Below, piece after piece: positions 628 to 3,206 of a DNA stretch of 3,731 nt (position 1 is its first letter; the number at the start of each line of letters is the position of its first letter). The notes below the pieces were generated by a model that worked only from the letters and a program-made list of their open reading frames with translations, ran no database searches and was not told the origin of the DNA. The stretch is from a plasmid, in the NCBI RefSeq assembly GCF_988243305.1, contig NZ_OZ547141.1; one strand, written 5' to 3'. Both the position numbers and the translations under genes were made by a program.

Positions 628-1304
<677 letters not shown>

Positions 1305-1332
1305 TGTCAGCTTGTTTTTATGATATGAGAAC

Positions 1333-1361
1333 TTGAGATCCTTTCTATCTCGTCGTAATCT
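1333..1361 (+). promoter_or_regulatory. RNAII (replication primer) promoter: -35 TTGAGA 1333-1338, -10 TAATCT 1356-1361
   Basis: Same hexamers and 17-bp spacing as the pMB1/ColE1 RNAII promoter as I recall it (TTGAGATCC...CGTAATCT); sits immediately upstream of the RNAI-complementary region. Confidence 0.75.
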
Positions 1362-1371
1362 CTTGCTGTGT

Positions 1372-1479
1372 AAACGAAAAAACCGCCTTGCAGGGCGGTT
1401 TTTCGAAGGTTCTCAGAGCTACCAACTCTTTGAGCCGAGGTAACTGGCTTGGAGGAGCGCAGTCACCAAAACTTGTTCT
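1372..1479 (-). ncRNA. RNAI antisense copy-number control RNA (about 105-108 nt)
   Basis: Minus-strand sequence acaagttttggtgactgcgctcctccaagccagttacctcggctcaaagagttggtagctctgagaaccttcgaaaaaccgccctgcaaggcggttttttcgttt closely resembles p15A/ColE1 RNAI and ends in the G/C hairpin plus U-tract terminator. Confidence 0.8.
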
Positions 1480-1482
1480 TTC

Positions 1483-1512
1483 AGTTTAGCCTTAACAGGC
1501 GCATGACTTCAA
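1483..1512 (-). promoter_or_regulatory. RNAI promoter (-10 TAAACT, -35 TTGAAG on the minus strand)
   Basis: Hexamers read directly upstream of the RNAI 5' end; 18-bp spacer; position analogous to the ColE1 RNAI promoter. Confidence 0.55.
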
Positions 1513-1971
1513 GGCTAACTCCTCTAATTCGGTTACCAGTGGCTGCTGCCAGTGGCGATAAGTCGTGTCTTCTCGGTTTGGATTCAAGTCGATAGTTACC
1601 GGATAAGGCGCAGCGGTCGGACTGAACGGGGGGTTCGTGCATACAGTCCAGCTTGGAGCGAACGACCTACACCGGGCCGAGATACCAACAGCGTGAGCTA
1701 TGAGAAAGCGCCACGTTTCCCGAAGGGAGAAAGGCGGACAGGTATCCGGTAAGCGGCAGGGTCGGAACAGGAGAGCGCACGAGGGAGCTTCCAGGGGGAA
1801 ACGCCTGGTATCTTTATAGTCCTGTCGGGTTTCGCCACCTCTGACTTGAGCGTCGGTTTTTGTGATGCTCGTCAGGGGGGCGGAGCCTATGGAAAAACGC
1901 CATCGGCGCGGCCTTTGTCCCTGGCTTCGGCTTTTTGCTCACATGTTCTTTCCGGCGTTATCCCCTGATTC

Positions 1972-1980
1972 TGTGGATAA
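1972..1980 (-). promoter_or_regulatory. DnaA box (TTATCCACA)
   Basis: Exact consensus 9-mer on the minus strand within cggttatccacagaatcag, the same context as the DnaA box downstream of the pMB1 origin as I recall it. Confidence 0.5.
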
Positions 1981-2112
1981 CCGTATTACCGCCTTTGAGT
2001 GAGCTGACACCGCTCGCCGCAGTCGAACGACCGAGCGTAGCGAGTCAGTGAGCGAGGAAGCGGAAGAGCGCCTTATGTGACATTTTCTCCTTACGCTCCT
2101 CTATGCCGTTCT

Positions 2113-2129
2113 GCATCCTGTCCGGATGC
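2113..2129 (-). terminator. Short hairpin (6-bp stem GCATCC/GGATGC, 5-nt loop) directly after the rom stop codon; possible weak terminator
   Basis: Inverted repeat read directly from the sequence; no U-tract follows on the rom strand, so intrinsic-terminator function is doubtful. Confidence 0.3.
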
Positions 2130-2130
2130 G

Positions 2131-2325
2131 TTATATCCCGGTAAGATTTTCCGCTTCAAAGCGTGTCTGTATGCTGTTCTGAAGTTCTTCCGCGAGTTCG
2201 TGCAGCTTCTCACACATGGCGGCCTGTTCGTCAGCATCAAGTGCGTCCAGTTTTTCGAGCAGCGTCAGGCTCTGGCTTTTTATGAATCCTGCCATGTTGA
2301 GTACGGTTTGCTGCTGCTTGTTCAT
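2131..2325 (-). CDS. rom: Rom/Rop RNA one modulator protein (64 aa)
   Basis: ORF-track protein MNKQQQTVLNMAGFIKSQSLTLLEKLDALDADEQAAMCEKLHELAEELQNSIQTRFEAENLTGI aligns closely with ColE1 Rop (MTKQEKTALNMARFIRSQTLTLLEKLNELDADEQADICESLHDHADELYRS...); it is oriented toward the origin as in ColE1. Confidence 0.9.
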   Translation of the reverse strand: MNKQQQTVLNMAGFIKSQSLTLLEKLDALDADEQAAMCEKLHELAEELQNSIQTRFEAENLTGI

Positions 2326-2413
2326 CTTTCTGTTTTCTCCGTTCTTTCTGTCATCTGCGTTGTGTGATTATATCGCGTACCACTTTTCGACTGTTTTACC
2401 GTCGGTATTCTGC

Positions 2414-2447
2414 TGTCTGACTCTTTGACGGGCATTTCTGTCAGACA
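2414..2447. repeat. Inverted repeat, 8-bp arms TGTCTGAC / GTCAGACA with 18-bp spacer, in the rom-mobC intergenic region (function unassigned)
   Basis: Read directly from the sequence (arms 2414-2421 and 2440-2447). Confidence 0.8.
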
Positions 2448-2515
2448 ACACTGTCACTGCCAAAAAACTGCCGTGCCTTTGTCGGTAATTCGAGCTTGCT
2501 GACAGGACAGGATGT

Positions 2516-2557
2516 GCAATTGTTATACCGCGCATACATGCACGCTATTACAATTGC
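2516..2557. repeat. Inverted repeat, 12-bp arms GCAATTGTTATA / TATTACAATTGC (11/12 complementary) with 18-bp spacer, about 50 bp upstream of the mobC-like start; candidate operator or promoter element
   Basis: Read directly from the sequence; an adjacent short palindrome GCCCTG-gt-CAGGGC lies at 2556-2569. Confidence 0.75.
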
Positions 2558-2608
2558 CCTGGTCAGGGCTTTGCCCCGACACCCATGTCAGATACGGAGC
2601 CATGTTTT

Positions 2609-2932
2609 ATGACAAAACGAAGTGGAAGTAATACGCGCAGGCGGGCTATCAGTCGCCCTGTTCGTCTGACGGCAGAAGAAGACCAGGAAATCAGAAAAAG
2701 GGCTGCTGAATGCGGCAAGACCGTTTCCGGTTTTTTACGGGCGGCAGCTCTCGGTAAGAAAGTTAACTCACTGACTGATGATCGGGTACTGAAAGAAGTT
2801 ATGAGACTGGGGGCGTTACAGAAAAAACTCTTTATCGACGGCAAGCGTGTCGGGGACAGGGAGTATGCGGAGGTGCTGATCGCTATTACGGAGTATCACC
2901 GTGCCCTGTTATCCAGGCTTATGGCAGATTAG
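2609..2932 (+). CDS. mobC: MobC/MbeC-like relaxosome accessory protein with N-terminal ribbon-helix-helix DNA-binding fold (107 aa); family assignment is from recollection, not a search
   Basis: ORF-track protein 2585..2932; preferred start is the second ATG at 2609, which has a GGAG 9 nt upstream (2596-2599). After a basic N-terminal tail (TKRSGSNTRRRAISRP), the segment VRLTAEEDQEIRKRAAECGKTVSGFLRAAAL has the strand-helix-helix pattern of RHH proteins. Context is a ColE1-family replicon next to rom. Confidence 0.6.
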   Translation: MTKRSGSNTRRRAISRPVRLTAEEDQEIRKRAAECGKTVSGFLRAAALGKKVNSLTDDRVLKEVMRLGALQKKLFIDGKRVGDREYAEVLIAITEYHRALLSRLMAD

Positions 2933-3008
2933 CTTCCAGGGGAGAAAACTGTCGAAAACAGACGGTATGAACACTGTAAGCTCCCAAAGTGATCACCACT
3001 CGCTTTCA

Positions 3009-3022
3009 TGCATAGCTATGCA
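3009..3022. promoter_or_regulatory. Perfect 14-bp palindrome TGCATAGCTATGCA; ArgR-box-like element of the cer accessory region
   Basis: Palindrome read directly; resembles the ArgR box half-sites TGAAT/ATTCA with one mismatch each; centred about 108 bp upstream of the XerC arm. Confidence 0.45.
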
Positions 3023-3096
3023 GCGAGCTGAAAACGATCCTGACGCATTTCCCCGGTTTTCTTAGGGTAAAACATCTCTTTTTGCAGTGTCTGTGT

Positions 3097-3121
3097 CAGA
3101 ATCGCGCTCAGCGCGATTCTG
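3097..3121. repeat. Perfect hairpin: 11-bp arms CAGAATCGCGC / GCGCGATTCTG with 3-nt loop, abutting the XerC arm
   Basis: Read directly from the sequence; no flanking T-tract on either strand, so not a canonical intrinsic terminator. Confidence 0.85.
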
Positions 3122-3122
3122 T

Positions 3123-3152
3123 GGTGCGTACAATTAAGGGATTATGGTAAAT
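3123..3152. other. XerC/XerD core recombination site: XerC arm GGTGCGTACAA 3123-3133, central region TTAAGGGA 3134-3141, XerD arm TTATGGTAAAT 3142-3152
   Basis: Matches the ColE1 cer core GGTGCGTACAA-TTAAGGGA-TTATGGTAAAT from memory, with the 8-bp central region typical of cer-type rather than dif-type sites. Confidence 0.8.
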
Positions 3153-3168
3153 ACAATTGGTTAAATTA

Positions 3169-3206
3169 GGGGTCTGACGCTCAGTGGAACGAAAACTCAC
3201 GTTAAG
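3169..3206. repeat. Tn3 38-bp terminal inverted repeat (bla-proximal end, IR-R)
   Basis: GGGGTCTGACGCTCAGTGGAACGAAAACTCACGTTAAG matches the Tn3 terminal repeat as recalled; followed by the standard Tn3 sequence leading into the bla stop codon. The flanking 5 bp outside the repeat is AATTA (3164-3168), an AT-rich target. Confidence 0.9.

Follow-up and report, generated by a model that had tools for sequence, protein, structure and literature searches.

How can a 3.7-kb plasmid make use of a relaxosome accessory protein when it encodes no relaxase? The question is raised by the window analyzed here, a stretch of 3,731 nucleotides that represents a complete circular plasmid and in which a gene for a 107-aa protein lies at 2609-2932 on the plus strand. 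A preliminary description, made from the sequence alone, took this gene for an orphan mobC-like gene encoding a ribbon-helix-helix (RHH) protein and offered two explanations for its isolation: either the event that cut short the adjacent transposon also cost the plasmid its relaxase gene, or the protein acts only as a regulator or in trans. Here, we ask to which family the protein belongs, what lies on either side of its gene, how the gene is arranged in related plasmids, and how the 3731-bp form arose.

Results

Organization of the plasmid

Apart from the starting point of the circular sequence, the plasmid matches NZ_CP138772.1 of Klebsiella oxytoca strain 45 at 100% identity, i.e., the exact 3731-bp form is already present in RefSeq. 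Its replicon is of the ColE1 type, and RNAI (Rfam RF00106, 94.6 bits) is encoded by the minus strand at 1374-1474. RNAI was the sole match in the Rfam scan, and the oriT and cer regions described below matched no RNA family. The rop gene (2131-2325, minus strand; 64 aa), present both in the ORF list and in the RefSeq annotation, is divergent from the gene under study, which we refer to as nikA. What remains of a Tn3-family element is a 38-bp inverted repeat, tnpR (628-1185, minus strand), res, and blaTEM-1, the last of which continues across the ends of the window. In the circularized molecule, the longest ORFs are those of bla (286 aa), tnpR (185-197 aa) and nikA (107-115 aa), and all others have at most 96 aa. 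A 96-aa ORF at 2077-2367 on the plus strand is antisense to rop, and a 93-aa ORF at 2563-2844 on the minus strand is antisense to nikA; neither has a family match and both are probably not genes.

A NikA-like RHH protein

The RefSeq boundaries of nikA, which is annotated there as mobA, agree with ours: the entry for WP_000166966.1 in the annotation of the identical plasmid covers the same 324 nt, starting with ATG, under the name "plasmid mobilization protein MobA." The GGAG at 2595-2598 on the plus strand, 10 nt upstream of the ATG at 2609, reads as the likely Shine-Dalgarno sequence. An alternative start at the in-frame ATG at 2585, which would give a protein of 115 aa, has no Shine-Dalgarno sequence. 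A promoter and terminator scan of 2050-3200 found no sigma-70 consensus promoter for nikA.

Profile searches placed the protein in the NikA family, with 113 bits against NCBIfam NF041264 "MobA" (cutoff 80; profile positions 1-90 of 91) and an E value of 4.4e-18 against Pfam PF21983 "NikA-like." Moreover, residues 4-48 align with the RHH structure of R64 NikA(1-51) (PDB 2BA3; E 2.4e-5). Compared to NikA of IncI1 plasmids, the protein is colinear across its full length and 51-54% identical; identity is higher in the C-terminal half (60%) than in the half that binds DNA (41-47%). In an AlphaFold2 model (mean pLDDT 79.5), an extended segment at the N terminus precedes the RHH helices (residues 22-35 and 39-47), and the C-terminal part forms a hairpin of helices (55-76/84-106). 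Searching the PDB with this model in Foldseek returned no significant match; the nonsignificant local superpositions of the RHH were with AtaR, Arc, and CopG, with an rmsd of about 1 Å over 35-38 residues. Judged by these similarities, the 107-aa protein is a NikA-like RHH relaxosome accessory protein of the IncI1/R64 type. The preliminary description thus recognized the functional class correctly from the N-terminal RHH signature, and it is the label MobC-like that has to be replaced, as the profile search leads to PF21983 and not to PF05713.

In a comparison with two diverged relatives whose backbones are 4-6% divergent, all 13 of the 13 nucleotide differences within nikA are synonymous (11/11 against pU302S and 2/2 against the 2676-bp plasmid L005). 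By this pattern of substitutions, nikA is under purifying selection. NikA of NTP16 (L008 1810-2130) has 106 aa and one alanine fewer in the AA pair at residues 32-33; the missing alanine may stem from a mistake in the sequence of 1992 and not from a true allelic difference.

An R64/IncI1-type oriT upstream of nikA

An R64/IncI1-type oriT core is located at 2501-2586, and the minus strand is predicted to be the nicked, i.e., transferred, strand. Aligned with the region 5' of nikA in the IncI1 plasmid pESBL-12, the 85 bp at 2502-2586 agree in 74 of 87 columns (85% identity), with the repeat and the ATCCTG motif in register; conjugative IncI-type plasmids match the core at 75-87%. It contains an inverted repeat with a nick-proximal arm of 20 nt at 2516-2535 and, separated by a 2-nt spacer, a distal arm of 20 nt at 2538-2557 that is 85% complementary to the former. 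NikA is predicted to bind the nick-proximal arm, the first 16 positions of which contain a single mismatch to the IncI1 arm. For this assignment, repeat A of R64, reportedly characterized by Furuya and Komano in 1995 and 1997, served as the model. Across the oriT, the minus strand reads CAATTGCACATCCTG^TCC, and the ATCCTG motif lies 8 nt from the inverted repeat. The predicted nic site is accordingly placed at 2507-2508 on the minus strand (CACATCCTG^TCC); this position and the 8-nt spacing presumably follow those of R64/RP4-type nick regions.

The oriT core is identical to that of L005 at 86 of 86 positions and to that of pU302S at 85 of 86. This conservation of 99-100% contrasts with that of the adjacent cer accessory region, which falls to 83-91%.

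Within the oriT, the 24-nt block at 2561-2584 (GGTCAGGGCTTTGCCCCGACACCC) is 92% identical to the bom region of ColE1 (L010 1498-1521). The bom of ColE1 lies between ori and rop; the oriT of the window is on the opposite side of rop.

No relaxase gene in the replicon

We found no relaxase gene anywhere in the 3731-bp replicon. In a tblastn search of the plasmid with IncI1 NikB, the best E value was 0.88, and the ORFs left after assignment of the genes above had zero NCBIfam family matches. The 236 bp that follow nikA (2933-3168) contain three to four stop codons in each plus-strand frame. Most of this segment is a cer-type multimer resolution site (2933-3152), which includes an ArgR-box-like TGCATAGCTATGCA near 3009 and a 30-bp XerCD core at 3122-3151 that is identical to the ColE1 cer core. 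Backbone homology to L005 stops at 3152, directly past this core. Next to the right end of the transposon, the AATTA at 3164-3168 is a copy of the target site; the terminal inverted repeat of the bla end (38 bp, Tn3 family) occupies 3169-3206. On the absence of a relaxase gene from the replicon, and on a cer-like site with stops in the three plus-strand frames followed by the Tn3 repeat at 3169, our results agree with the preliminary description. In the plasmid group to which the window belongs, the cargo adjoining cer varies widely and comprises a retron, aph(3')-Ia, hypothetical genes, or this transposon.

A solitary nikA is the normal state in the small-plasmid lineage

At a DNA identity of at least 90%, the oriT-nikA module is present in 385 PLSDB records, 382 of which are typed as mobilizable rather than conjugative; in a spread sample of 60 such records, nearly all lengths were between 2.5 and 12 kb. 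Using tblastn, we identified 381 records with NikA at ≥95% identity. The next class, at no more than 55%, is formed by NikA of large conjugative plasmids, the closest of which is 55% identical to the window protein. The identical protein occurs in hundreds of plasmids from four genera, and a homologue search with NikA mostly returned near-identical or fragmentary relatives on short contigs. Among the carriers of the module are pU302S, in whose record, as in that of the window, NikA has the accession WP_000166966.1, NTP16-type records, pMUT1-type records of Nissle, and 4051-bp retron plasmids; pMUT1 of Escherichia coli Nissle 1917 belongs to the same plasmid group.

A relaxase gene was absent from all eight annotated records of the family, i.e., the window's own record, L002 (4051 bp), L005, L006, L007, L014, NTP16, and pU302S. 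By contrast, in the conjugative plasmids inspected, the nikA homologue is always directly followed by nikB or traI. Thus, nikA is normally solitary in the small-plasmid lineage, and a relaxase gene lies 3' of nikA only in large conjugative plasmids. A relaxase gene directly downstream of the NikA-like gene, which the window does not have, separates the conjugative members from this orphan small-plasmid subgroup. The expectation that, in related ColE1-family plasmids, the accessory gene usually shares an operon with a relaxase gene is therefore not borne out, as the accessory gene is solitary in L002, L005, pU302S, and NTP16. The preliminary description had also considered that related plasmids might reveal a gene that is normally solitary and unrelated to mobilization; the gene order in the relatives confirms the solitary state, but the gene is related to mobilization.

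MOB-suite typing in PLSDB labels L001, L002, L005, L007, L008, L009, and L014 as "mobilizable; relaxase MOBF." Because these plasmids contain no relaxase ORF, the label probably means that the typing counts the NikA-like protein as a relaxase.

Solitary genes for NikA-like proteins of 141 aa also occur, without a relaxase gene, on two RepL-type plasmids of 2313 bp (L011 910-1335) and 3131 bp (L012 2600-3028). Their products are 38% and 35% identical, respectively, to NikA of the window and have a C-terminal extension. This arrangement suggests that the design in which a plasmid encodes the accessory protein only recurs on an unrelated replicon.

Origin of the 3731-bp form

The backbone at 1289-3168 is 99.8% identical to that of transposon-free 4051-bp plasmids, which carry an Se72-type retron instead of the transposon (L002). 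The cargo of these nearest transposon-free relatives consists of a retron Se72-family reverse transcriptase and a small effector (L002 442-1789; in L014, 2526-3873). The 11,848-bp plasmid L014 is 100% identical to the window across all 3731 bases. In L014 (1606-1648), a Tn3-family element is inserted in the retron plasmid at AATTA. The insertion lies 13-17 bp past the cer core and has left a 5-bp duplication of the target, the second AATTA being located beside the left inverted repeat; the interior of the transposon comprises IS6100, mphR-mrx-mph(A), and IS26.

The octamer TATAACAT at 1289-1296, where the transposon ends in the window, occurs twice in the precursors, in res site I of the transposon and where the retron effector gene ends. 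The two copies are located at 3869-3876 and 7600-7607 in L014 and at 5001-5008 and 8732-8739 in L007. Recombination between the two copies leaves exactly the window (11,848 − 8,117 = 3,731 bp). The transposon end at this octamer, together with the occurrence of the same octamer in longer plasmids that are 100% identical, indicates that the window derives from a retron/mph(A)/blaTEM-1 plasmid by a deletion of 8117 bp. The deleted 8117 bp contained ΔtnpA, IS6100, mphR-mrx-mph(A), IS26, the left inverted repeat, and the retron, and no relaxase gene. Because the octamer covers the resolvase crossover dinucleotide, the deletion was possibly resolvase-mediated; recombination at microhomology would fit the junction equally well.

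A sister retron plasmid, L006 (pUSDA5905_5), has an independent Tn3-family insertion at TATAA with a 5-bp duplication (220-262 and 4400-4420). The TATAA pentamer is part of the deletion junction of the window.

Discussion

Our findings support a model whereby oriT and nikA constitute a two-part mobilization module that is completed in trans: NikA binds the oriT repeat of its own plasmid and recruits NikB of a co-resident I-complex plasmid, and the minus strand is nicked and sent through the secretion system of the helper. We assign this model a probability of about 0.85. In the proposed sequence of events, NikA, as an RHH dimer or tetramer, would bind the nick-proximal arm at 2516-2535 and thereby present the minus-strand nick region ATCCTG^T, at a distance of 8 nt, to NikB of an IncI1-type (MOBP/MPF_I) helper. 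NikB would then nick this strand, attach to its 5' end, and pilot it through the coupling protein and the type IV secretion system of the helper. The rop/ori side would be transferred first and nikA last. We infer those elements of the model that concern the arm bound, the precise site of the nick, the contact between NikA and NikB, and the direction of transfer. The near identity of the nick-proximal arm to the IncI1 arm suggests that the helper's own NikA might suffice.

Published work on sister plasmids is consistent with this model. NTP16 is mobilized by R64, according to the summary of Moran and Hall (2017) in PMC9282650, and pU302S is mobilized by IncI1 plasmids and not by IncX plasmids (PMC8623487). 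Because even the best match among NikA proteins of conjugative plasmids reaches no more than 55% identity to that of the window, IncI1 plasmids may not be the optimal helpers, a doubt also raised in PMC9282650. In K. oxytoca strain 45, the other four plasmids (NZ_CP138768-CP138771) are an IncFIA/FIB/R plasmid, an IncHI2A plasmid (MOBH, MPF_F), a 112-kb nonmobilizable plasmid, and a 4.9-kb MOBP plasmid, and no helper of the IncI type (MPF_I/NikB) is among these four. In this strain, the plasmid may be stranded or use another helper.

Several other explanations were weighed against the module completed in trans. The suggestion that nikA was once followed by a relaxase gene, which disappeared when the transposon was cut short, would fit the truncation of the transposon at res and the position of nikA 236 bp from the transposon end. 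However, in the transposon-free relatives, whose backbone is 99.8% identical, nikA and cer are arranged alike and a relaxase gene is absent, the transposon inserted cleanly at AATTA, 3' of cer, with a 5-bp duplication, and the precursors L007 and L014, which reveal what was deleted, contained no relaxase gene in that DNA. As pU302S, NTP16, and L005 likewise lack a relaxase gene, we regard such a loss, as put forward in the preliminary description, as extremely improbable. Hardly more probable is the idea that nikA no longer has a function, either as a decaying relic of a mob or nikAB operon or as an ORF that arose by chance. The lack of a partner gene and of a consensus promoter speaks for this idea. 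Against it stand the exclusively synonymous substitutions in backbones that have diverged by 4-6%, a protein sequence that is the same in four genera and hundreds of plasmids, and an adjacent oriT core that is kept at 99-100% next to a cer accessory region that is not.

The two remaining explanations concern the activity of the protein. In one, NikA is solely an RHH transcriptional regulator or an antitoxin-like protein that is unrelated to DNA transfer. Weak Pfam matches to RHH antitoxins (TacA1, E 0.07; DUF6290, E 0.09), the RefSeq GO term "regulation of transcription," and the longer retention of pMUT1 upon deletion of nikA (PMC10859263), which hints at an effect other than on transfer, all point in this direction. 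Yet no toxin ORF is adjacent and the neighboring ORFs have no family match, the homology to NikA spans the full length of the protein, including the half that does not bind DNA, nikA is invariably located beside an R64-type oriT, and mobilization of the sister plasmids is specific to IncI1 helpers. A role as a regulator only is, therefore, improbable in our judgment. Thus, of the two roles that the preliminary description had offered for a protein without a relaxase partner, completion in trans is supported, and action as a regulator only finds little support next to the full-length NikA homology and the adjacent oriT; autoregulation could be a second role of NikA. In the other explanation, the protein is of the ColE1 MobC/MbeC type and uses a MOB-HEN (MbeA-type) relaxase from another small ColE1-like plasmid. 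The position of nikA, divergent from rop, equals that of the ColE1 MobC-family gene, the block at 2561-2584 resembles bom, and K. oxytoca strain 45 harbors a 4.9-kb MOBP plasmid. These similarities are outweighed by the lack of any BLASTP alignment to the ColE1 MobC-family protein at E values up to 100, by the absence of PF05713 from the Pfam scan at E values up to 10, and by a nick region and repeat that are of the R64 type. Moreover, IncX helpers do mobilize plasmids with mobC-mobABD and do not mobilize pU302S, which has only nikA (PMC8623487). We consider a MobC-type function very improbable.

We tentatively suggest, as an unlikely extension of the model of a module completed in trans, that NikA of these plasmids is an adaptor that recruits relaxases of more than one helper lineage to a single oriT or, alternatively, that the cognate helper belongs to an unsampled MOBP/MPF_I lineage whose NikA is closer than 55%. 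The divergence of the DNA-binding half together with the greater similarity of the C-terminal half to IncI NikA is what suggests that several relaxases could be recruited. In the case of an adaptor, I-complex plasmids would be efficient helpers and F-type plasmids weak ones; weak mobilization of pU302S by F-type plasmids has been reported once. If the cognate helper is unsampled, the solitary genes for NikA-like proteins on L011 and L012 would make an accessory protein plus oriT a recurrent, convergent form of hitchhiking.

The module would explain how a 3.7-kb blaTEM-1 plasmid without a relaxase spreads by conjugation with no more than an oriT and one small accessory protein. In practice, it also affects the prediction of mobility, in which plasmids that encode no relaxase are typed as "relaxase MOBF."

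The plasmid belongs to the known pCERC7/NTP16 group, and its mobilization strategy has been described previously. In the account of the NikA-encoding ColE1-like plasmids of Moran and Hall (2017) given in PMC9282650, none carries nikB, NikA is 53% identical to that of R64, and the oriT, with 20-bp repeats, is extremely conserved and ∼78% identical to that of R64. A review describes pCERC7 as a pOriT that acquired the R64 oriT region (PMC11389934). Because the group, its NikA, its oriT, and its mobilization by IncI1 plasmids have all been published, the present finding redescribes a known family and leaves the current understanding unchanged. pCERC7, NTP16, pU302S, pEC34A, and pMUT1 are like the window in NikA, in an oriT core conserved at 99-100%, in the RNAI/rop replicon, in cer followed by variable cargo, and in the lack of a relaxase. 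The cargo alone differs, the window having a Tn3-family remnant (IR-blaTEM-1-tnpR-res) left by the 8117-bp deletion.

With the IncI1 plasmid R64, the window shares the RHH N-terminal domain, a colinear protein of 107-110 aa, and the order in which an oriT repeat, 8 nt from ATCCTG, lies 5' of nikA. It differs from R64 in having no nikB, in a protein that is 51-54% identical, in 20-nt arms with a different center, and in its 3.7-kb ColE1 replicon. In ColE1, MbeC/MobC (PF05713) likewise is small, of the RHH type, and accessory to nicking, and its gene, the first past the oriT side of the replicon, diverges from rop; however, the protein has no detectable sequence similarity to NikA of the window and belongs to another Pfam family, and ColE1 encodes its own relaxase, MbeA. 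Finally, oriT-only hitchers such as pEC156, which has an R64-like oriT, use the relaxase and the secretion system of a helper via a mimic oriT, and pBuzz is cited as a comparable hitcher whose oriT is from a different conjugative plasmid (PMC4743918; PMC11389934). pEC156 and pBuzz carry the DNA site alone, whereas the family of the window keeps its own accessory protein under purifying selection.
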